This document shows, piece after piece, positions 5,153-15,743 of a stretch of DNA of 55,268 bases. Below the pieces are notes generated by a model. It was not told the DNA's origin and did no database searches. It saw only the letters and a list, made by a program, of their open reading frames with translations. Made by a program: the position numbers and the translations under genes. Numbering within the stretch: position 1 is the stretch's first letter; every line of letters starts with the position of its first letter. Source of the DNA: an uncultured Thermococci archaeon (lineage in GTDB: Archaea > Methanobacteriota_B > Thermococci > Thermococcales > Thermococcaceae); contig CAZAPD010000062.1 of the NCBI GenBank assembly GCA_964487115.1, positions 1 to 55,268 of the forward strand, written 5' to 3'.

Positions 5153-6409
5153 ATGACCGTGAAAATTGCTGTCATTATTCTCTCCATTATTGTTCTGGCC
5201 AGTGGGTGTGTAACAGCTCCACAATCACAAACAGAGTCACGCACTGCCCCCAATACTTCCAGTGATGTTCTAAGTCCTATGCAGACCCCGGAGGTTCAGG
5301 GAATTGCTGATGCCAACAATCTATTTACGCTCGAACTCTACCGAAGGCTTCCAAGCGGTAGAAATGTATTCTTCTCACCCTTCAGCATATTCATAGCACT
5401 TGCAATGACATATGAGGGAGCGAGAGGAAAAACCGCTGAAGAGATGGGAAATGTGCTCCATCTTCCGAGCAATGCCTCCCTGCGTAGAGATGCTTTCAGA
5501 ACTGTCCTCCTCGAAGCTGAAAATCCAACAGGTCTTAATCTCCGAATAGCGAATGCCCTCTGGGTTCAGAAGGGTTTTCCGATTAAAGAGGGCTACCTGA
5601 ATGTTATAGAGAAATACTATCTCGGACATGTGGAGAATGTAGACTTCAAGCAAAACCCGAGAGGTGCGGAAAAGGAGATAAACAAATGGGTGGAAGAACA
5701 AACGAATGGAAGGATAAAGAACCTCGTTAGTGGCCTGTCTCCACTTACGAGGCTGATTATAACGAATGCTGTCTATTTTAAGGCCAACTGGTCACTCAGA
5801 TTCAATCCAAATGATACCCATAATGGTACTTTCAGATTGTCTTCTGGCAAAGCAGTTCTTGTTCCCATGATGCACAGAAAAGGCCAATTTGGATACGCTG
5901 AGACCGGTGATCTTCAGGTTCTTGAGATGCCCTACAGTGGGGATATCACTCACAGATTCAGCATGTTGATAATTCTGCCGAAAAATAGGTTGAGTGCTGT
6001 TGAGGAAAAACTCACGCCGCAGTTCATTAAGGAACTCATGAACTCAACAAAACCTCAGAAAGTCGATGTAACGATTCCAAAATTCAGATTTGAAACTGAG
6101 TACCATCTGAGCAGAATTCTTCAGGAAATGGGTATGCAAGAGGCGTTTACAGATGAAGCTGATTTTTCGGGAATTTCAGAAAAACCTCTGGCAATCAGTG
6201 ATGTCATTCACAAGACCTTCATAAGTGTCGCTGAGAATGGCACCGAGGCTGCAGCTGCAACGGCTGTGATATTAACAGCGGTCTCTGTCTCTGAAACGGA
6301 AGAGCAATACAAGGTCTTCAAGGCAGATCATCCATTCATTTTCATGATAATTGACAAGGAGAATGGAATGATACTCTTCATGGGAAGGCTTGAAGACCCG
6401 AGGGGTTAG
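5153..6409 (+). CDS. serpin, predicted lipoprotein
   Basis: Lipobox LASGC; FSPFSI; NAVYFKANW; hinge ENGTEAAAAT; signature FKADHPFIFMI. Confidence 0.96.
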   Translation: MTVKIAVIILSIIVLASGCVTAPQSQTESRTAPNTSSDVLSPMQTPEVQGIADANNLFTLELYRRLPSGRNVFFSPFSIFIALAMTYEGARGKTAEEMGNVLHLPSNASLRRDAFRTVLLEAENPTGLNLRIANALWVQKGFPIKEGYLNVIEKYYLGHVENVDFKQNPRGAEKEINKWVEEQTNGRIKNLVSGLSPLTRLIITNAVYFKANWSLRFNPNDTHNGTFRLSSGKAVLVPMMHRKGQFGYAETGDLQVLEMPYSGDITHRFSMLIILPKNRLSAVEEKLTPQFIKELMNSTKPQKVDVTIPKFRFETEYHLSRILQEMGMQEAFTDEADFSGISEKPLAISDVIHKTFISVAENGTEAAAATAVILTAVSVSETEEQYKVFKADHPFIFMIIDKENGMILFMGRLEDPRG

Positions 6410-6555: not shown

Positions 6556-7299
6556 ATGCCCACCTGGAAGGACGGAAAGCTCGGTCTTCCGATCAGCGAG
6601 GCCCTTAAGCTCTTCCCCGAGCTTGAGCGGTACCTCGATGAACGCGGCAGGCTCGACTTCTCGAACAGAAAAGCCAGAATACTATACAACAGAGCCGTAG
6701 CGAAAGCTCTCTTCGGGCTGGACATAGAGTACCACCCGCGCGGGCTCGTCACCACCCCGGTTTCGCGTTACATCTTTCTCAAGACCTTCCTCAGGGGCGG
6801 TGAGAGGGTTCTGGAGATAGGGACGGGGCACACAGCAATGATGGCCTTGATGGCGGCTAAGCTCTTCAACTGCGACGTCACCGCGACGGAGCTCGACGAG
6901 GAGTTCTTCGAGTACGCGAGAAGGAACATCGAGCAGAACAGTGCCCGGGTAAGGCTCCTCAAAAGCGGCGGCGGGATAATCTGCGGTGTGGTTCCGGAGG
7001 GGGAGATATTCGACGTGGTCTTCTCGGCTCCCCCGTACTACGAGGGGCCGACGAAAGGGGTTCTGACGGAGAGGGAAGGCGTCGGTGGGGGAAAACACGG
7101 CGAGGGCTTTTCAGTGAGGCTCATCGAGGAGGCGCTGGACTATTTGAAGCCGGGCGGAAGGGTAGCCCTCTTCCTTCCCGACAAGGGGCCGCTGATAGAG
7201 GCCGTGGAAGAAAAGGGAAAGGAACTGGGCTACTCCGTCAGGGACGTACGCTTTAAGGTGGGTACAAGGTGGAGGCACAGTTTGATACTGAAAAAATGA
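6556..7299 (+). CDS. class I SAM-dependent methyltransferase (RlmF-related)
   Basis: VLEIGTG and SAPPY motifs; strongly GC3-rich codons. Confidence 0.88.
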   Translation: MPTWKDGKLGLPISEALKLFPELERYLDERGRLDFSNRKARILYNRAVAKALFGLDIEYHPRGLVTTPVSRYIFLKTFLRGGERVLEIGTGHTAMMALMAAKLFNCDVTATELDEEFFEYARRNIEQNSARVRLLKSGGGIICGVVPEGEIFDVVFSAPPYYEGPTKGVLTEREGVGGGKHGEGFSVRLIEEALDYLKPGGRVALFLPDKGPLIEAVEEKGKELGYSVRDVRFKVGTRWRHSLILKK

Positions 7300-7303
7300 A
7301 AGG

Positions 7304-7549
7304 TCAGGTCACGATGAGCCCTATGACCTGCCCCTGCGCCACCTCCTCGTTCTCCTTAACCAGAATCTTAAGCTTCCCGCTCGCCGGGGCCTTAACGTGC
7401 ATGGTGACCTTCTCTATCATGACTTCCGCTATCTCCTCGCCCTCTTCGACGGAATCGCCGTCGTTCTTGTACCAGCTCAGCAGGACGCCGGTTTTATCCT
7501 CCTTCGTCGTCCGGGGTACCTTGACCTCTACCTCCATTCTGCCGCTCAC
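7304..7549 (-). CDS. stand-alone lipoyl (biotin/lipoyl attachment) domain protein
   Basis: 81 aa; W..DGDSVEEGEEIAEVMIEKVT..VKAPASGKL with the carrier Lys in EKV. Confidence 0.9.
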   Translation of the reverse strand: MSGRMEVEVKVPRTTKEDKTGVLLSWYKNDGDSVEEGEEIAEVMIEKVTMHVKAPASGKLKILVKENEEVAQGQVIGLIVT

Positions 7550-8550
7550 CCGAGCATGTCCTTCACTGTCCCCACTATCTTCTCCCTGTCGGGCAGGACG
7601 AACCTCTCCAGTACCCTGCTGTAGGGAACAGGAACGTCCGGATAGGCTATCCTTCTCGGAAGGGCCTTGAGCTCGTTTCCTATCCTTTCGACGACGGTGG
7701 TTATTATCTCGCCGCTCATTCCGTAGCTCATGTAGTCCTCATCCACGACGAGAAGCCTCCCAGTCTTCCTGACAGAGTTTATGAGGGTCTCCCTATCGAG
7801 GGGAACGAGGGTCCTCAGGTCAATGACCTCCGCACTTATTCCACTCTTCTCAAGCTCTTCCGCGGCCCACAGGGCCTCGTAGACTGTTCTTGATACAGTT
7901 GCTATCGTAACGTCGTCACCTTCCCTCACGATTTTCGCCTCCCCTAGGGGGACGGTGTAGGGCTCTTCGGGCACTTCGACCGCGGCTTCGTCCGGGGAGG
8001 GCATCCATCCGAGTCCCATCAGCCCCTTGTGGAAGAAGTACATGACGGGGTTGTCGTCCCTTATAGAGGATATCATCAGCCCTTTGGCGTCGTAGGAGTT
8101 GGAAGGGATGACTATCTTGAGTCCCGGAACGTGGGCAAACAGACCGTAGAGGCACTGGGAGTGCTGGGCCGCGTCGCTGTAGCCTCCGCCGATAGCGGTC
8201 GTTATAACTATGGGCATCCTGACCTGCCCGCCGGACATGTAGTGCGCCTTGGCGATGTGGTTGTATATCTGATCCATCGCCACGCCGAAGAAGTCCACGA
8301 ACATCAGCTCGACTATCGGCCTCATACCCTTCGATGCGGCTCCGAGGGCGGCGCCTATGAAAGCCGACTCGCTTATGGGAGTGTCTCTGACCCTTTCGGG
8401 GCCGAACTTCTCAAGTAGACCGTTTGTGGCCCCAAAGATTCCGCCGTAGGCTCCTATGTCCTCACCCATAACGAAGACGTTCTCGTCACGCTCCATCTCC
8501 TGAGCTATTGCCTCCGCTATTGCCTTGTACATGGGGAGCTTTCTCGCCAT
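7546..8550 (-). CDS. TPP-dependent 2-oxoacid/acetoin dehydrogenase E1 beta subunit (copy 2)
   Basis: GEDIG, DTPISE, HSQ and DLRTLVPLD motifs; ATG at 8550. Confidence 0.93.
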   Translation of the reverse strand: MARKLPMYKAIAEAIAQEMERDENVFVMGEDIGAYGGIFGATNGLLEKFGPERVRDTPISESAFIGAALGAASKGMRPIVELMFVDFFGVAMDQIYNHIAKAHYMSGGQVRMPIVITTAIGGGYSDAAQHSQCLYGLFAHVPGLKIVIPSNSYDAKGLMISSIRDDNPVMYFFHKGLMGLGWMPSPDEAAVEVPEEPYTVPLGEAKIVREGDDVTIATVSRTVYEALWAAEELEKSGISAEVIDLRTLVPLDRETLINSVRKTGRLLVVDEDYMSYGMSGEIITTVVERIGNELKALPRRIAYPDVPVPYSRVLERFVLPDREKIVGTVKDMLG

Positions 8551-8551
8551 C

Positions 8552-9556
8552 TCACTCACCCCCCGCAAAAACGCCCTTTAGGGCCTCTTCTGGTTCGGGA
8601 TACGGACTGTTAAGGGCGAAGTCTATGGCTTCCTGAACTTCCTTCTCGTTCTGCTCCTCGATTCTCGCCAGTTCCTCCTCAGTGGCGATTCCCTTCTCAA
8701 GGAGCAGTTTCCTGAAGTTGGCCAGGGGATCCTTCTCCTTCGCCAGTTCGAAGTCCTCCTTTGGACGGTATAGCTGGGGATCCCCTTCGAAGTGCCCCCT
8801 GAGCCTGTAGGTTCTAACCTCTATGAGGCTCGGCCCCTCCCCGCGTCTGGCTCTCTCAACGGCCTCCTTGGCGACTTCATAGACGGCTATAACGTCGGCA
8901 CCGTCGACACTAACCCCAGGGATGCCGTAGGCCTTGGCCCTTTCGCTGTTCTTTGCCACGGCGGTTGATTTGTCCTTTGGAACCGAGATAGCCCAGCCGT
9001 TGTCCTCTATCAGGAATATAACCGGCAGCTTCCAGACCGCCGCAAGGTTGAGGGCCTCGTGGAAAGTCCCCTGATTGGCCGCTCCGTCACCGCCAACGGC
9101 AACTGCTACGTAGTCCTCGCCCTTCAGTTTGGCAGCGATGCCAACTCCAACGGCCTGGGGAAAGCTCGCACCGACTATACCACTGCAGCTGAAGTTTTTG
9201 GCGGCATCAAATAGGTGCATGTGTCCGCCCTTGCCTCCGGAGAGACCGGTAGCCTTGCCGAATATCTCAGCAGTCATTCTCTTCAGGTCAACACCCTTGG
9301 CTATTGCAAAGTGGTGGGCCCTGTGGGTTCCTATAACAGCGTCCTCATCCTTCAGGTGTATGCAGACACCAACCGCAGCGGACTCCTGTCCCGAGGAGAG
9401 GTGAAGCTCTCCCGGAATCGGGCCGGCAGATATGTCGAAGCGCGGACTCTTTCCCTCATAGTACCACTTGGCCAGGGTCTCCTCGTACGTTCTAATCTTA
9501 TGCATCGTCCCGTATATCTCCAGTAGGGTTTCCTTCGGTATTTCCTCAACTTCCAT
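8552..9556 (-). CDS. TPP-dependent dehydrogenase E1 alpha subunit (copy 2)
   Basis: THRAH; TPP motif GDGAANQG...EDN; YRLRGHFEGD. Confidence 0.93.
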   Translation of the reverse strand: MEVEEIPKETLLEIYGTMHKIRTYEETLAKWYYEGKSPRFDISAGPIPGELHLSSGQESAAVGVCIHLKDEDAVIGTHRAHHFAIAKGVDLKRMTAEIFGKATGLSGGKGGHMHLFDAAKNFSCSGIVGASFPQAVGVGIAAKLKGEDYVAVAVGGDGAANQGTFHEALNLAAVWKLPVIFLIEDNGWAISVPKDKSTAVAKNSERAKAYGIPGVSVDGADVIAVYEVAKEAVERARRGEGPSLIEVRTYRLRGHFEGDPQLYRPKEDFELAKEKDPLANFRKLLLEKGIATEEELARIEEQNEKEVQEAIDFALNSPYPEPEEALKGVFAGGE

Positions 9557-9627
9557 TCTCCCACCTGCCTTTTCCGTTTATTTGACTGGAGTGATTCAAT
9601 CAGCGTCAAACGTCAAAAAAGAAAGTC

Positions 9628-10074
9628 TCACTCCTTCAGCACTATCCGCAGGGGAGTTGCGTTTTTCAGGTTGTCAGTGACCGGACAGCGCTCCTCCACT
9701 TCTCTCAAAAGTTCCTCGATTTTCTCCTTAGGGGCATCAGCCTCCAGATAAACCGAGACCGTCACCTCGGTGAAGCCCGCACGTCCCTCTTTTGAGATGC
9801 CCTGAAACTTCGCGGGATCCAGCTTTCCGGTGATGGCCAGATCAAGGGCCTTCACGGGTATCCCCTTCTCCCCCGCGACCCCCCTGATGGTGACGTTCAG
9901 ACAGCCAGCCAATGCCACGAGGAGGTACTCAACAGGATTCGGGCCCTCATCCGTTCCACCTATCTCTGCCGGCTCATCAACGATGACATCGAACTCCCTG
10001 ACCTTCGCGAGCAGCTTCGTGTCAGATAGGGACTTCCCGGTTACGTAGAACGTCCACTCATCCAAGGCCATCAC
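9628..10074 (-). CDS. OsmC/Ohr family protein
   Basis: DEP..GG.D.GPNPVEYLLVALAGC and EERCPV: both catalytic cysteines are present. Confidence 0.9.
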   Translation of the reverse strand: MMALDEWTFYVTGKSLSDTKLLAKVREFDVIVDEPAEIGGTDEGPNPVEYLLVALAGCLNVTIRGVAGEKGIPVKALDLAITGKLDPAKFQGISKEGRAGFTEVTVSVYLEADAPKEKIEELLREVEERCPVTDNLKNATPLRIVLKE

Positions 10075-10373
10075 CCGAAGATACTGTCTCCGCTCTTTCC
10101 CTCCAGACCGGGATGGATGTCGAACCGCACGGCTCCAACGGGAACCTTTCCTCCAACGGCCTCAACGACCCTGGCCACACCGAGGTGACCAAAGCCTCCG
10201 CACAGCTCTATCGCAGCAATCCCATCTTCCACGAGCTTTTTCGCGACCTCGCAGGCCTCATCGTAGTTTTTGACACCGACAACGTGAAGCTCCACCATTG
10301 GAGTCCGGATAACGGCTTTGTGCTCCCCCGGATTCGCTTCAGGTGCGACGAACATGAAGGCGGCCTTGAGCAT
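10071..10373 (-). CDS. DUF6506-like small protein
   Basis: AFMF.AP start and AIELCGGFG motif; GGAGGTGA RBS. Confidence 0.75.
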   Translation of the reverse strand: MLKAAFMFVAPEANPGEHKAVIRTPMVELHVVGVKNYDEACEVAKKLVEDGIAAIELCGGFGHLGVARVVEAVGGKVPVGAVRFDIHPGLEGKSGDSIFG

Positions 10374-10397
10374 GTTTTCACCTCCAAAAATGAGAGG

Positions 10398-11381
10398 TCA
10401 GAGAACCTCCCTGACTGCGTTCTCTATTCTCTCCGTGCATGGTATCCACTCGTTTTCAAGGGCCGGGCTGAAGGGCACAGGGGTTGCTGGGGGCGTTATT
10501 ATCTTAATCGGAGCTTTTAGGTGCTCAAAGGCCCTGCTGGCGGCGAGTGCAGCTACGTCGGTGGCAAAGCCCGCCCTCGGATAGCCCTCGTCAACGACTA
10601 CCAGCCTTCCGGTCTTCTTTATGGAGTTCAGGATCGTCTCAGTGTCCAAGGGTACGAGCGACCTCGGATCAACGACCTCGACGCTTATACCCTCTTCCGC
10701 GAGCTTCTCCGCCACTTCCAGGGCCCTGTGAACCATAGCTGCCGTTGCAACTATTGTCGCGTCCTTTCCTTCCCTCTTCACGTCTGCCTCTCCAAGTGGT
10801 ATGGAATAAGGCTCCTCCGGAACAGGACCCTTAACCGCGTAAAGTCCCTTGTGCTCTATGAAAACAACCGGGTCGTCATCCTCTATCGCCGAGATCAGCA
10901 GTCCTTTGGCGTCATAGGGGGTGGAGGGCATGACAACTTTAAGACCCGGCACGTGGATGAAGAGTGCATGAAGCGACTGGGAGTGCTGTGCGGCGGCCGA
11001 AAAGCCGGCTCCACAAGTTGTTCTGAGAACCAGTGGTATCCTCGCTTTCCCGCCGAACATGTACCTCATCTTTGCGGCCTGGTTGTATATCTGGTCGTAG
11101 GCGACTCCAAGGAAGTCTATGAACATAAGCTCCACAACGGGTCTCAGCAGTCCAGTAGCCGCAGCCCCAACCGCAGTACCTATGAAGCCACTCTCCGCTA
11201 TCGGTGTATCCCTGACCCTCTCCGGCCCGTACTTCTCGTAAAGTCCAGCGGTAACCCCGTATATCCCTCCATAGAGTCCGACGTCTTCGCCCATTACGAC
11301 GACCTTTTCATTCTTCCCCATTTCGTAGTCCAGCGCCTCGTTGAGTGCCTGAGCGAAGGTTATCTCCCTCACCACTGCCAT
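10398..11381 (-). CDS. acoB: acetoin/2-oxoacid dehydrogenase E1 beta subunit (copy 1, AcoB-like)
   Basis: GEDVG, DTPIAE, NQAAKMRYMFGG and AAQHSQ motifs. Confidence 0.9.
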   Translation of the reverse strand: MAVVREITFAQALNEALDYEMGKNEKVVVMGEDVGLYGGIYGVTAGLYEKYGPERVRDTPIAESGFIGTAVGAAATGLLRPVVELMFIDFLGVAYDQIYNQAAKMRYMFGGKARIPLVLRTTCGAGFSAAAQHSQSLHALFIHVPGLKVVMPSTPYDAKGLLISAIEDDDPVVFIEHKGLYAVKGPVPEEPYSIPLGEADVKREGKDATIVATAAMVHRALEVAEKLAEEGISVEVVDPRSLVPLDTETILNSIKKTGRLVVVDEGYPRAGFATDVAALAASRAFEHLKAPIKIITPPATPVPFSPALENEWIPCTERIENAVREVL

Positions 11382-12373
11382 ACGAGCACCCCCTTGGTGG
11401 GCGTGGAGAAGACATCCTCAAGGAGTTCCTCCCCCGACGGCCATGGGCTTTCCTCTGCAAACTTTACAGCCTCCTCAATCTCCTTCCGGGCCTTCTCCCA
11501 GATTGCATCGAGCTCTTCCCTTGTGGTTATCCCCTTGGCCAGGAGTTTCTCCTCGAAGAGCTTTATCGGGTCTTTGTTCTCCTTCCACCATTCGATTTCC
11601 TCCTTTGACCTGTAGACCTGTGGGTCGCCCTCAAAATGTCCCCTGAACCTGTAGGTCTTGGCCTCTATCAGAGTTGGCCCCTCACCCCTTCTGGCGCGTT
11701 CAATGGCTTCCTTGGCCACCTCATAGACTGCCAGAACATCCTGCCCGTCAACACTCACACCGGGAATTCCATAGGCTTTGGCCCTCTCGGCCACGCTCTT
11801 TATCGTCTGCTGTTTCTCGTAGGAGAGGGATATCTGGTACTGGTTGTTCTCACAGACGAATACAACGGGCAGCTTCCAGATGGCCGCGAGATTTATCCCC
11901 TCATGGAAGTTCTGCTGGTTCGAGGCACCGTCACCGAAGAAGGCAACGGCGACGTTATCGAGGCCGTTGAGCTTTATGCCCAGGCCCGCACCGACCGCGT
12001 GGGGGATGCCACCCCCAACTATGCCGTTGGCTCCCAGCTCACCGACGTCAAGGTCGGCTATGTGCATTGAACCGCCCTTTCCCTTTCCGCTTCCGGTCTT
12101 CTTTCCGAATAGCTCGGCCATAGAGGCCTTTATATCCCCTCCCTTGGCTATGTAGTGGCCGTGTCCCCTGTGGGTGCTCGTTATGAAGTCCTCCCTCCGG
12201 AGGTTGGCCATCACACCAACGGCGACGGCCTCTTCCCCGACGTATAGATGTACGAAGCCGGGTATCTTGCCCTGGGCAAAGAGCTCTGCAACTCTTTCTT
12301 CATGCACTCTAATCCTCACCATAGTTTCATACATCCACAACAAAGTTTCTTTTGGGATTTCCTTTACGGGCAT
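11369..12373 (-). CDS. acoA: acetoin/2-oxoacid dehydrogenase E1 alpha subunit (copy 1, AcoA-like)
   Basis: IPGFVHLY.GEEA, STHRGHGH, GKGGSMH, GDGASNQ...ENN and GHFEGD motifs. Confidence 0.9.
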   Translation of the reverse strand: MPVKEIPKETLLWMYETMVRIRVHEERVAELFAQGKIPGFVHLYVGEEAVAVGVMANLRREDFITSTHRGHGHYIAKGGDIKASMAELFGKKTGSGKGKGGSMHIADLDVGELGANGIVGGGIPHAVGAGLGIKLNGLDNVAVAFFGDGASNQQNFHEGINLAAIWKLPVVFVCENNQYQISLSYEKQQTIKSVAERAKAYGIPGVSVDGQDVLAVYEVAKEAIERARRGEGPTLIEAKTYRFRGHFEGDPQVYRSKEEIEWWKENKDPIKLFEEKLLAKGITTREELDAIWEKARKEIEEAVKFAEESPWPSGEELLEDVFSTPTKGVLVWQW

Positions 12374-12455
12374 AGTATTTCCTCCTTCTAAATATAGATT
12401 TCATCTTTTTATTTTTTCAAAAATAGATTTAACTAAGTGGTAATTTGTAAAACTG

Positions 12456-12507
12456 ATATATACATATTTCGCAAGCGTTATATATGTTAATTCAGCTATT
12501 AACGCTT
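12456..12507. promoter_or_regulatory. divergent promoter region with inverted repeat AAGCGTTA-N19-TAACGCTT
   Basis: AT-rich intergenic between divergent operons; TATA-like runs near 12456-12463 and 12478-12485; perfect 8-bp arms at 12473-12480 and 12500-12507. Confidence 0.5.
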
Positions 12508-12533
12508 AGAAGGTTAATTTTGGGGGAGAAAAT

Positions 12534-12785
12534 ATGAGTATGAGAAGGGTAAATATTATCATGCCGAAGTTGGGAATGACCATGAAGAAAGGAGAAATCG
12601 TTGAATGGAAGAAAAAAGCAGGTGAACCTGTGAAAAAGGGGGAAGTTATAGCTATTGTAGAGTCTGAAAAATTGACAGGAAACATTGAATCCCCTGCCAC
12701 AGGAGTTCTTGTGGAGATACTGCATGATATAGGAGATGAGGTTCCAGTTGGAGAAACAATTGGAATAGTTGAAACAGAAGAGTGA
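12534..12785 (+). CDS. stand-alone lipoyl domain protein (detached E2 N-terminus)
   Basis: MPKLGMTMKKG.IVEW.K..GE.V.KGE.IA.VESEK: typical AcoC/E2 lipoyl domain with its own stop codon. Confidence 0.92.
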   Translation: MSMRRVNIIMPKLGMTMKKGEIVEWKKKAGEPVKKGEVIAIVESEKLTGNIESPATGVLVEILHDIGDEVPVGETIGIVETEE

Positions 12786-12789
12786 TCGC

Positions 12790-13608
12790 ATGGTAAGCGA
12801 AGAGGTAAAAATGATAGCTGAGCAGTATGATGTGGATCTTTCAAAGCTTAAAGGTTCGGGGCCAGATGGAGAGGTTACCCTTGAGGATTTAGAGGCATAC
12901 ATAAAGGAGCATTTTTACCCTAAAGTGAAGGAGGAGGTCAGGATTTTTGGGATTAGAAAGGTTATAGCGGGTAGACTCTCTAAGAGTTACAGGGAAGCTG
13001 TTCATGTAACATTGAATATGGACGTGGAAATGGATAATCTCATGAAACTAAGAATGGAATTTGCTGAAAAACTTGGCAAAAAACCTTCATACACCGTGAT
13101 AATGCTGAAGTGTATAGCTCAGGCTATTAGAGATTTTATTGAGATTAATGCCACTATGGAGGGAGAGAAGATTATAATATATGACAATGTTAACATAAAC
13201 GTTGCAGTTGATAGCCCTGTGGGTTTGATAACCCCTGTTATCAGGGATGTTGATAGGAAATGCTTGGAAGAGCTTCTCAGGGATTATCAAGACCTTATGG
13301 AAAGAGCAAAAAAAGGTCTTCTCAAGGAAAAAGACTTTGTTGGGGGCACATTCACTCTAACAAATCTTGGAATGTTTGGTGTTGACTCGTTTACCCCAAT
13401 AATAAACCCACCTCAGATAGCTATACTCGGGATAAACAGGATTGTTCAGAGGCCTGTTGTGAGAAATGGTAATATTGGGACTGCCCACATAATGACACTA
13501 TCCTTAAGTTTTGACCACAGGGCTATAGATGGCGCACCAGCGGCTAGGTTCCTCCAGAGAGTCAAATACTATTTGGAAAATCCCAGGGAGGTGTTCAAGA
13601 ATGGATGA
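12790..13608 (+). CDS. dihydrolipoamide acyltransferase E2 core (subunit-binding plus catalytic domain, no lipoyl domain)
   Basis: DLSKLKGSGPDG; GGTFTLTNLG; FTPIINPPQ; catalytic DHRAIDG. Confidence 0.93.
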   Translation: MVSEEVKMIAEQYDVDLSKLKGSGPDGEVTLEDLEAYIKEHFYPKVKEEVRIFGIRKVIAGRLSKSYREAVHVTLNMDVEMDNLMKLRMEFAEKLGKKPSYTVIMLKCIAQAIRDFIEINATMEGEKIIIYDNVNINVAVDSPVGLITPVIRDVDRKCLEELLRDYQDLMERAKKGLLKEKDFVGGTFTLTNLGMFGVDSFTPIINPPQIAILGINRIVQRPVVRNGNIGTAHIMTLSLSFDHRAIDGAPAARFLQRVKYYLENPREVFKNG

Positions 13609-13978
13609 ATGGAAGCGTTACGTTATTGAAATTGGAATGGGGATAGACCAGCATGGACAGGACTCTACAAGAGCAGCTGTGAAGGCTGTCAAGGATGCTA
13701 TAACAAGGGTTTGCACCGTAGGTCTTCTGGAGCTCTTTGAGCTTGATTTGGAAGAGGATGTTAAAGCGGAGATTATAATTGGAATTCCTTATCCGGAAAG
13801 TGTAAATGCTAATGAAGTTAAAAAAGCGATTCCGATACCATGTGAAAAAATTGTTAGAACTGTCAAAGGAGGCTTAAAAGGCCCCGGTGTAGCTCTTGAG
13901 GAATTTGGAGATAGGACAAATGAGATGATTGTCGCCATAGCATTTATAACGCTCTATGTTAGGGGAGGGAAGAAATGA
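13601..13978 (+). CDS. Lin0512 family protein
   Basis: IEIGMGIDQHGQDSTRAAVKAVKDAI motif; GGAGGTG RBS before ATG 13601. Confidence 0.82.
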   Translation: MDEWKRYVIEIGMGIDQHGQDSTRAAVKAVKDAITRVCTVGLLELFELDLEEDVKAEIIIGIPYPESVNANEVKKAIPIPCEKIVRTVKGGLKGPGVALEEFGDRTNEMIVAIAFITLYVRGGKK

Positions 13979-14955
13979 AAAAGACAACAGTCGGCATAAT
14001 AGCAAATCCCGAATCCGGCAGGGACATAAGGCGGCTGATTGCCCATGCAAGCGTCTTTGACAACATGGAGAAGGTTAACATAGTCGAAAGGCTCCTTCTT
14101 ATACTCCAGGATCTTGGGATTGAGAAAATAATTGCAATGCCAGAGACATTTGGTATAGTTCCGGGTGCTGTAAATGCTATCGAGGATCACCTGACAATGG
14201 AAGTTGAAATCCTTCCTATGAGGATATTTGGGGACTGGAGGGATACATACAATGCTACTAAGGCAATGAGGGGTAAAGTAAGTGCTTTAGTTGTTATCGG
14301 GGGAGATGGAACCAATAGAATCGTTGCTAAAGCCTGTGGTAGTACTCCTATAATGCCAATATCTACCGGTACCAATAACGTTTTCCCATATATGATAGAG
14401 GCTACTATAGCAGGTGAGGCAACTGCTGCAATAGCAAGGGGAGTGGTAAAGCCCGAAGAGGGTACATATCAAGCCAAGAGGATTGAACTTTTTGAAGACG
14501 GCGTTTTGAAGGATATAGCTCTCATTGACGCCGTGGCAACTATCCATTCTTTTGTGGGTTCAAAGGCTGTCTGGAAGCCTGAATATTTGAAGGAAATCGT
14601 TGTTAGCAGGTGTTCTCCTTTCAACATTGGACTGAGTGCTATAGCAGGAATTCTGAGGGAAATTGGAGGGGATGAAGATTTGGGTTTATACATCGAGCTT
14701 GGTGAAGGTAGGGTTATAAAGGCTCCAATAGCCCCGGGTATTTTCAAGAAGGTGAGAATAAAAGGTTTTAAGGAACTGAAGCTTGGGGAGGAAATTGAGA
14801 TAAAAACTTCCCCATCCCTTTTTGCCTTAGATGGTGAGAGAGAAGTTGAAATGAGTGGTGAGATAACAGCAAAGGTTACGAGAAATGGACCACGGGTAAT
14901 AGACTATCAAAAAACTCTAAAGCTGGCATCTAAGAGGGGATTCTTTGAGGATTAG
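13975..14955 (+). CDS. acoX: AcoX-like ATP-NAD kinase family protein
   Basis: GIIANPESGRDIRRL, GGDGTNR, STGTNNVFP and ALDGERE motifs. Confidence 0.85.
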   Translation: MKKTTVGIIANPESGRDIRRLIAHASVFDNMEKVNIVERLLLILQDLGIEKIIAMPETFGIVPGAVNAIEDHLTMEVEILPMRIFGDWRDTYNATKAMRGKVSALVVIGGDGTNRIVAKACGSTPIMPISTGTNNVFPYMIEATIAGEATAAIARGVVKPEEGTYQAKRIELFEDGVLKDIALIDAVATIHSFVGSKAVWKPEYLKEIVVSRCSPFNIGLSAIAGILREIGGDEDLGLYIELGEGRVIKAPIAPGIFKKVRIKGFKELKLGEEIEIKTSPSLFALDGEREVEMSGEITAKVTRNGPRVIDYQKTLKLASKRGFFED

Positions 14956-15743
14956 CTGAGGATCTTATCTATTTTCTCTTCGAGCTCTCTTTTATTAATT
15001 TTTGGCGGTCTTTTCATATTCCACTCCTCTCTCGAATATTTTTCTTTTTGAAGCAATCTGGCAACTTTAATCTCTTTCTCTGTGGGCTTCTCAAAATGAT
15101 ATGTCAACGACAGAATTTCCGAATACCCATGAATTAATGCAGAAATGATATCACTATATTCAACATCAATGAATTCTGTCAGATTTGCCACTCTGTACTT
15201 AACGGGATCTATTGAGGGCTTAATATTCTCTGGTATTCTGAGCAGGGATTTGAGCTCTTTTAAGTTGGCATTTACGAGAATTGACCCATGAAGGAAGAGC
15301 ACTCCCCATTTTATACTCCCTGCAGTTCCGGAAATCTTTCTTCCTTTAAAGACAACATCGCTGGTGTTCCTGAGCTCTGCTCTTATCCCCAGCCTTTCCA
15401 GAGCGTTTAGAGTTCCTTTTAGTAGAGTACCGTAAAGATAGGAGATAGGGAATTTCACACCCCTTTTCAGTACAATTGAGTAGTTTATGCAGCCTTTATC
15501 ATGGTAAACAGTTCCCCCGCCTGTAAAACGCCTTATTATTGGGAATCCATCTTTTTCAGCCCTTAACAGGTTAACATCTATCTCCGGATCTCTGAAATAT
15601 CCCAGGACAATTGCTCTTTGATTGCTCCATATTCTCAGGGTATCCGGAATTAAGTCTTTTGCTCTTGCTCTTGCTAAGCTCTCTTCAAATGCGAGATTCA
15701 TGTAAGGGTTAGGGTCTTGAAATGTTAAAACTCTCAAATGCAT
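14952..15743 (-). CDS. lplA: lipoate-protein ligase (LplA catalytic domain only)
   Basis: NLAFEE, RRFTGGGTVYHD, KISGTA and HGSIL motifs; likely ATG at 15743. Confidence 0.88.
   Translation of the reverse strand: MHLRVLTFQDPNPYMNLAFEESLARARAKDLIPDTLRIWSNQRAIVLGYFRDPEIDVNLLRAEKDGFPIIRRFTGGGTVYHDKGCINYSIVLKRGVKFPISYLYGTLLKGTLNALERLGIRAELRNTSDVVFKGRKISGTAGSIKWGVLFLHGSILVNANLKELKSLLRIPENIKPSIDPVKYRVANLTEFIDVEYSDIISALIHGYSEILSLTYHFEKPTEKEIKVARLLQKEKYSREEWNMKRPPKINKRELEEKIDKILS

Follow-up and report, generated by a model that had tools for sequence, protein, structure and literature searches.

How could a member of the Thermococcales run a lipoyl-dependent dehydrogenase when no dihydrolipoamide dehydrogenase (E3) is found in its genome to reoxidize the lipoyl group? 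The question is raised by a twelve-gene island at positions 7304 to 15743 of contig CAZAPD010000062.1 (assembly GCA_964487115.1, from an uncultured Thermococci archaeon), the full 55,268 nucleotides of which form the window analyzed here. The host genome belongs to the Thermococcales (2.06 Mb in 132 contigs, 96.5% complete, GC content 0.43), and close homologues of the island proteins bear Thermococcus names; cultured species that carry the cluster, as named in the protein search, include T. litoralis, T. barophilus and T. paralvinellae. Thermococcales are taken to oxidize 2-oxoacids with ferredoxin enzymes, and their genes for E2, the acyltransferase, have been interpreted as possibly indicating oxygen tolerance (PMC3904984). 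A quarter of the Thermococcales genomes surveyed instead carry a modular lipoyl system under selection. We propose, with a probability of about 0.5, that the island encodes a split, modular system of the 2-oxoacid/acetoin dehydrogenase type, which would cleave an acetoin-like alpha-hydroxyketone into an aldehyde and an acyl-CoA and whose carriers would be recycled by a lipoyl route of the host rather than by an E3 of its own.

Family scans gave the same order, strands and families for all twelve genes as an earlier note on this DNA (the original prediction). The features are as follows.

11369..12373, minus strand: E1 alpha 1 (AcoA-like), core module (PF00676, 327 bits)
10398..11381, minus strand: E1 beta 1 (PF02779 and PF02780)
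10071..10373, minus strand: DUF6506 protein, conserved partner of the core (PF20116)
9628..10074, minus strand: OsmC-family two-cysteine protein, optional (PF02566)
8552..9556, minus strand: E1 alpha 2 (PF00676, 297 bits)
7546..8550, minus strand: E1 beta 2 (E1-beta family scan and alignment)
7304..7549, minus strand: free lipoyl carrier of module 2, lipL (PF00364)
12374..12533, no strand: divergent promoter region with a conserved TATATA box
12534..12785, plus strand: free lipoyl carrier of the core, lipR (PF00364)
12790..13608, plus strand: armless E2, consisting of an E1/E3-binding domain and the acyltransferase core (PF02817 and PF00198)
13601..13978, plus strand: Lin0512-family protein, dispensable (PF09585, TIGR02058)
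13975..14955, plus strand: AcoX, with an NAD-kinase-like fold (PF01513)
14952..15743, minus strand: lipoate-protein ligase (LplA), N-part only (PF21948)
6556..7299, plus strand: flanking methyltransferase, outside the system (GC content 0.58 versus the genome mean of 0.43)

The E2 had been described as a core. It is indeed armless, but it is not a bare core, since the E1/E3-binding domain PF02817 is retained; its likely start is the ATG at 12790, directly after the carrier stop, the TTG at 12769 being less likely. The LplA of the island is a 263-residue N-part, with a separate C-part on contig C56. It is the second copy in the genome (31% identity to the housekeeping paralogue on contig C103) and is likely dedicated to the lipoyl carriers.

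In the scheme that we favor, this N-part would lipoylate the carriers together with the host C-part, each E1 would use thiamine diphosphate (TPP) to cleave its own substrate and acylate its own carrier, and the E2 would pass the acyl group to CoA. The substrate of the core pair (E1-1) is probably acetoin-like, and that of a third pair encoded elsewhere in the genome (E1-3) is probably an imported carboxylate, such as a 2-oxoacid. The dihydrolipoyl carrier would then diffuse, like the H-protein of glycine cleavage (GcvH), to the activity that reoxidizes GcvH in Thermococcaceae, for which two CoA-disulfide-reductase-type flavoproteins (contigs C78 and C11) or a thioredoxin-reductase relay (contig C44) are candidates. 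OsmC, where present, may serve as a second outlet, to peroxides.

The separation of the lipoyl domain from the E2 is real and old. All 25 carrier-E2 junctions examined show a stop followed by a new start, with a frame offset of 1 in 21 and of 2 in 4, which rules out a frameshift or sequencing error between the two genes. The E2 is therefore distinct from the AcoC type, in which the lipoyl domain is fused. Lysine 46 of lipR is invariant across 33 aligned carriers, the lipoyl lysine is present in every aligned lipL copy except a remnant in genome G120, and the E2 motif DHRxxDG is invariant in 55 homologues. In the homologue list, armless E2s (about 110, of 258 to 286 residues) rank above any full-length protein; their sources include Atribacterota, Caldisericia, Coprothermobacter, Fervidicoccus and Desulfurococcales. 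A quick tree of 65 domains placed 26 armless E2s of the island type in a single clade (support by the SH-aLRT branch test, 99) spanning Thermococcaceae, Thermoproteota, Caldisericota, Atribacterota and Coprothermobacter; the armless E2s of Phaeobacter and Natrialba fell outside it, on long branches that leave their placement unsure. The predicted gene arrangement of diffusible carriers, an armless E2 and several E1s is borne out.

The E2 domain was found in 25 of 99 Thermococcales genomes, with frames of 277 to 288 residues in the 23 genomes having an uncut match. Locus mapping covered 24 of the 25 E2 loci, G079 being left out; the genomes are kin, so that the counts show linkage and not independent events. 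A core made up of E1-1, the divergent carrier-E2-(Lin0512)-AcoX genes and the convergent LplA is conserved in 23 of the 24 mapped loci. AcoX and LplA follow E2 in these 23 loci, and the remaining one is cut by a contig end. E1 alpha genes occur in 24 of the 99 genomes (E1-1 in 23, E1-2 in 17, E1-3 in 6), all with E2 except G088, a genome that is 73% complete. DUF6506 is present in 20 genomes, all of them among the 25 with E2 and none among the 74 without it, and Lin0512 is present in 19 of the 23 loci extending past E2 (absent from G013, G077, G082 and G025). The gene-neighborhood survey across archaea and bacteria recovered the conserved core beyond Thermococcaceae as well: it is repeated in two Thermoproteota (G395 and G399) and at locus L040, and a search of 401 Thermoproteota genomes found an armless core E2 in two, plus one full-length E2. 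The cluster is one of heat-loving, anaerobic microbes. Codon comparisons and motifs indicate that the island genes are intact and under purifying selection, with dN/dS values (nonsynonymous to synonymous rates) of 0.01 to 0.23 against six related loci where synonymous sites are unsaturated, and with intact TPP-binding, E1-beta Glu/His, E2 DHRxxDG and lipoyl-lysine motifs.

The predicted lack of an E3 in the island and the window extends to the whole assembly. Neither TIGR01350 (best score, 141 bits) nor a motif search found an E3 in this genome, and a profile of eight true E3s matched no open reading frame (ORF) with the redox CxxxxC motif among 10,316 six-frame ORFs; the best matches were CoA-disulfide-reductase-type proteins. 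The E3 that belongs to an acetoin system was found neither in the operon nor elsewhere in the genome. With a true E3 as the query, 17 of the 99 genomes gave a match at an E value of 1e-25 (26 to 32% identity). Six genomes carrying the cluster are closed: G013, G077, G103 and G113 gave no E3 match at this threshold, G102 has a MerA (over the cutoff) and G100 has a glutathione-reductase-like protein that lies below every cutoff; the best TIGR01350 scores in closed carrier genomes were 147 to 157 bits. E3-like matches were inspected in 7 of the 17 genomes, together with one fragment from G031. Those of G102, G120 and G025 proved to be MerA-like and those of G100, G062 and G061 glutathione-reductase-like, and true E3 motifs were present only in G037, which belongs to another family. 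The MerA-like genes (L138, L140 and L141, in G102, G120 and G025) encode a C-terminal cysteine pair and score high with the E3 profile, so that they can be mistaken for E3. We regard it as very improbable that an ordinary E3 was missed or that the cluster is a nonworking relic: the assembly is fragmented and slightly incomplete, and the cluster has decayed in G025 and G120, but class I reductases are missing from four closed carrier genomes, and strong purifying selection with intact motifs speaks for function.

The original prediction treated the E3 gap as a property of the island, a view that the data do not support. GcvH is encoded by 98 of the 99 Thermococcales genomes, and glycine cleavage operates in Thermococcus kodakarensis although no L-protein has been recognized there, so the gap is a trait of the family and not a speciality of the island. 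This genome encodes GcvH, P1, P2 and T. In T. kodakarensis, glycine cleavage is functional in vivo and requires the H-protein, and there are only weak homologues of an L-protein, none identified as such (PMC11032457). That system (H, P1, P2 and T) resembles the one proposed here in that a free lipoyl protein shuttles and is reoxidized without a recognizable dihydrolipoamide dehydrogenase; it differs in its pyridoxal phosphate and folate chemistry and in being order-wide, whereas the cluster is found in 25 of 99 genomes. Beyond the family, too, the cluster comes without its own E3. Three of six such carriers (G122, G128 and G399) hold a normal E3 elsewhere in the genome, which makes borrowing the rule; no E3 was found in the other three (G121, G134 and G395), whose completeness is not given. 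Read by eye, the ORF lists of this genome show the gcv genes without a redox neighbor. The 9-kDa carriers, with E1 and E2, would offer a simple source of dihydrolipoyl protein with which to fish for the activity that completes glycine cleavage, and the missing L-protein of Thermococcales would thereby become assayable.

Several observations weigh against host recycling or against acetoin as the substrate. A class I disulfide reductase is present in 8 of the 25 E2-bearing genomes, and the six inspected MerA-like and glutathione-reductase-like enzymes of the family could moonlight. The flavoprotein candidates adjoin no gcv gene in this genome, and CoA-disulfide-reductase-type flavoproteins, with their single active cysteine, normally work as reductases. 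The cluster decays in some lines, since G025 has lost both E1 alphas, DUF6506 and OsmC (L136), and the carrier of G120 (L134) is a dead remnant with its lipoyl lysine replaced. The genome yielded no 2,3-butanediol dehydrogenase, a threonine dehydrogenase being the best match. Finally, the AcoA-like E1s of Haloferax are described as having no known substrate despite tests (PMC8305020), which leaves acetoin as a best guess.

The OsmC protein would provide an outlet within the island itself. Its C58 and C130 are invariant in 66 homologues, as expected of a peroxidatic and a resolving cysteine, and OsmC-type proteins have a chemistry suited to dihydrolipoyl oxidation (PMC5384416; bioRxiv 10.64898/2026.10.01.755906), which makes this protein a candidate dihydrolipoyl-dependent peroxidase. 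As with the lipoyl-dependent Ohr/OsmC peroxidases, a two-cysteine OsmC-fold protein lies beside lipoyl carriers. In those systems, however, E3 supplies electrons from NADH, whereas the island version would draw them from substrate cleavage; moreover, it is optional and belongs to an uncharacterized subfamily, scoring under the cutoffs of both TIGR03561 (26 of 89 bits) and, narrowly, NF041052 (91.6 of 95 bits). If OsmC replaced E3, electrons from acetoin or 2-oxoacids would pass through the lipoyl carriers into the reduction of peroxide or polysulfide. The invariant cysteines favor this possibility, as do the position of OsmC directly after DUF6506 in three genera, a second OsmC-E2 pair beside E1-3 on contig C84, and the fact that OsmC was not seen in four mapped core loci outside the family (L040, L234, L281 and L282). 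We nevertheless find it unlikely. Beside the core, OsmC is intact in 9 of the 24 mapped loci, broken in 1, absent from 10 (including closed G100, G103 and G113) and undetermined in 4; the E2-OsmC pair was not seen in five other mapped module 3 loci (G031, G088, G107, G109 and G119); and OsmC-family genes occur in 95 of the 99 genomes, so that their presence alone says little. Since an intact OsmC accompanies only 9 of the 24 cores and three closed genomes have none beside the core, we assign the main outlet to the host and regard OsmC as an optional addition.

DUF6506, Lin0512 and AcoX were likewise considered as E3 substitutes and rejected. Each of them persists in G128 and G399 alongside an E3, so that they belong to the substrate side, and DUF6506 is also missing from closed G100; no island gene tracks as an E3 substitute. 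In a bolder version, which we hold only tentatively, the genes would form an E3-free dehydrogenase "bus" in which up to three substrate-specific E1s load free carriers for a shared E2, and the carriers would be reoxidized by a new kind of lipoyl oxidant, either OsmC (with peroxide or polysulfide) or a housekeeping enzyme that does not use NAD+ and that would also be the missing archaeal L-protein.

The same genome has a second locus (L029:6552-14015, on contig C84), which encodes a third free carrier, a tripartite ATP-independent periplasmic (TRAP) transporter (DctP, Q and M), the third E1 pair and a facing helix-turn-helix regulator. Next to E1-3, this locus also has adjacent genes for another OsmC (57% identical) and another armless E2 (73%). 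The C84 E2 groups with the E2s of a high-GC Thermococcus line. With three E1 pairs, three carriers and two E2s in the genome, the "one E2" and "two TPP enzymes" of the original prediction need correcting. Two add-on modules, one of E1-2 and its carrier and one of E1-3, its carrier and the TRAP transporter, occur almost solely where E2 is present, and of the 23 genomes with E1-1, 18 encode one or more additional E1s; in G109, the E1-3 module adjoins the core. In Caldisericota, the operon of E1-3 and the TRAP genes also encodes a sigma-54 activator and an E2 of full length, and in G141 it has AcoX and LplA alongside. The Thermococcaceae E1-3 locus keeps the lipoyl part only, which would fit a module that plugs into a shared E2, and the family of its transporter suggests that the substrate is an acid. 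In the alignments, E1 alpha 2 has a 10-residue insertion common to the Phaeobacter and Natrialba proteins, and E1 beta 2 has a matching 9-residue insertion.

Several E1s around one type of E2 might also work as an internal loop, one E1 consuming a 2-oxoacid in the forward direction and another, in reverse, condensing acetyl-CoA with an aldehyde to an acyloin, so that the carriers would be recycled within the system with no outside oxidant. Acetoin cleavage, a reaction without CO2 release, should be reversible, and both the different pockets of the three E1s and the frequency of a further E1 in E1-1 genomes fit such a scheme. We consider it decidedly unlikely, since a single E1 alpha accompanies E2 in G113 (closed), G115, G116 and G120, the first three of which also lack a class I reductase, and since the gene set is unchanged in genomes that have both the cluster and a true E3.

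With respect to the substrate, the E1s are of the AcoA/AcoB type, as judged by annotated operon context rather than by a biochemically tested reference. E1 alpha 1 retains the TPP motif and the loop His, and E1 beta 1 retains the DTPIxE and AQHS motifs. E1 alpha 1 is 57% and 54% identical to E1 alphas of aco-type operons with butanediol dehydrogenase. The operons around the nearest plasmid relatives of E1-1 (2 of 357 records opened) include a butanediol dehydrogenase and a sigma-54 regulator, and those around the nearest plasmid relatives of E1-2 (2 of 320 opened) have the form E1-E1-lipoyl-armless E2, without an assigned substrate. A quick tree, in which the Paracoccus AcoA was not included, placed the three E1 alphas in one 25-row group with the E1 alpha of an Enterococcus aco-type operon (SH-aLRT 92), apart from a group from genomes of family f4 and from a Bacteroidota/Actinomycetota group. 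All three fall below the pyruvate dehydrogenase cutoff of TIGR03182 (380, 331 and 363 versus 393.85), and in the quick tree they do not group with proteins of the pyruvate or branched-chain 2-oxoacid dehydrogenase type. An acetoin-active E1 is reportedly present in Sulfolobus solfataricus. Pyrococcus furiosus makes acetoin (PMC12094016). The linkage of acoX to dehydrogenase genes holds in the island, the name resting on a 34% match (E value, 9e-52) to the gene ahead of acoA in the Paracoccus aco operon. AcoX co-occurs with acetoin dehydrogenase and was needed for its activity after transfer to Escherichia coli; no activity of AcoX on acetoin, NAD or pyruvate is reported (PMC10943186).

A substrate other than acetoin was also weighed: E1-1 with AcoX, DUF6506 and Lin0512 might handle another ketol or a sugar-derived fragment, which AcoX may phosphorylate and DUF6506 may isomerize. 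AcoX has a small-molecule kinase fold with the lack of reported activity just cited, and Cys58 of DUF6506 (in an ELC motif, invariant in 67 homologues) aligns with the catalytic cysteine of Asp/Glu racemases, in a weak profile match (probability 26.6%, controls at most 1.2%) over 40 columns. A glyoxalase-fold gene after E1 beta 1 in six loci and the failure to find a butanediol dehydrogenase point the same way. However, the surroundings of the core contain no conserved sugar kinase, isomerase or transporter, the racemase match is weak, and the nearest annotated relatives of E1-1 sit in acetoin/butanediol operons, so that we deem this alternative rather improbable and retain the acetoin-like substrate. 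Searches of PDB sequences with DUF6506 gave nothing significant; in the ESM Atlas, DUF6506 matched only itself and Lin0512 had no usable match, and a single-sequence structure model of DUF6506 was too poor to use (mean pLDDT confidence score, 46). Many DUF6506 proteins (P0314-P0445) are tandem duplicates, often with the cysteine in one half only. This genome has eight matches to the Asp/Glu/hydantoin racemase family, versus about three in most relatives, and four such genes lie within 11 kb on contig C90 (63845-74852).

The glyoxalase-fold gene lies between E1 beta 1 and DUF6506 together with a gene for a Trp-rich membrane protein of about 350 residues, which has no Pfam or NCBIfam match (L031:11013-12612; genomes G107, G110, G115 and G120); in G111, the glyoxalase-fold gene occupies this insertion point alone. 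The insertion is possibly an add-on for uptake or detoxification. At L281:7389-13740 in G399, a second Lin0512 copy and a sugar ABC transporter, not seen at the other loci, separate the core from LplA.

Among known systems, acoXABC of Pseudomonas putida and Cupriavidus necator and the acoABCL-type operons of Firmicutes share the AcoA-like E1 alpha and beta, AcoX and E2 with the island, and the Paracoccus aco operon is another such case. In contrast to these, the island E2 has no lipoyl arm, the carriers come from genes of their own, the genome yielded no E3, neither a butanediol dehydrogenase nor a sigma-54 AcoR was found, and two E1 modules, DUF6506, Lin0512 and OsmC are added. The aco operons themselves often lack an E3 gene (PMC10107126). 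Operons of Haloarchaea and Rhodobacterales are also similar in layout: Phaeobacter and Natrialba plasmids carry E1s of the E1-2 family, and downstream of each come the genes for a free lipoyl protein and an E2 of 228 to 247 residues. E1-2 is presumably orthologous to oadh2 of Haloferax volcanii, whose operon presumably contains the gene for the 86-residue lipoyl protein of this species. H. volcanii has one E3, whereas none was found in the genome analyzed here. The OadhAB2 of H. volcanii has no identified substrate (PMC8305020). Family f4 (L034-L036; G049, G043 and G052) has operons of the form E1-E1-full-length E2-LplA without an E3, with a gene for a small CxxC protein ahead. G049, the one tested, has a dihydrolipoyl dehydrogenase elsewhere. 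In 2014, E2 was noted in three Thermococcus species and single-domain lipoyl proteins were noted in archaea, the parts seen containing no discussion of E3 (PMC3904984). Free lipoyl carriers and E3-less operons are thus each already known. Their combination with the other parts, and the absence of E3 from closed carrier genomes, we did not find described, and no description of this cluster was found in the open full-text literature, subscription papers being outside the scope of the search. If it works as proposed, the system would add an undescribed carbon route for acetoin-like compounds and an imported acid, along with thermostable TPP enzymes, and the cluster gives a context to three proteins of unknown function: AcoX, DUF6506 and Lin0512.

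The island also has a composite history. Its left arm and the methyltransferase have a GC content of 0.55 to 0.58 and differ from G013/G077 at synonymous sites by 0.22 to 0.59; the right arm is host-like, with a GC content of 0.40 to 0.43 and synonymous differences of 0.78 to 1.05. The methyltransferase differs from G013/G077 by 0.55 to 0.59, versus 0.79 to 0.80 for a neighboring serpin. The high-GC block occupies window positions 6556-12373, with its boundary inside the divergent promoter. Composition and divergence together indicate a recombination at one and the same genomic place, through which a high-GC Thermococcus line contributed the left arm and the methyltransferase. A recent foreign island therefore holds only in part, the left arm having been replaced and the right arm being host-like. 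G016 shows the same contrast over the part that its contig covers. The TATATA box is conserved in 21 aligned divergent promoter regions; motifs of the SurR or TGM type occur in none of the 21, and a scan for bacterial promoters and terminators stayed at chance level. The serpin, at window positions 5153-6409 beside the island, is lipoprotein-like and has an intact-looking hinge.

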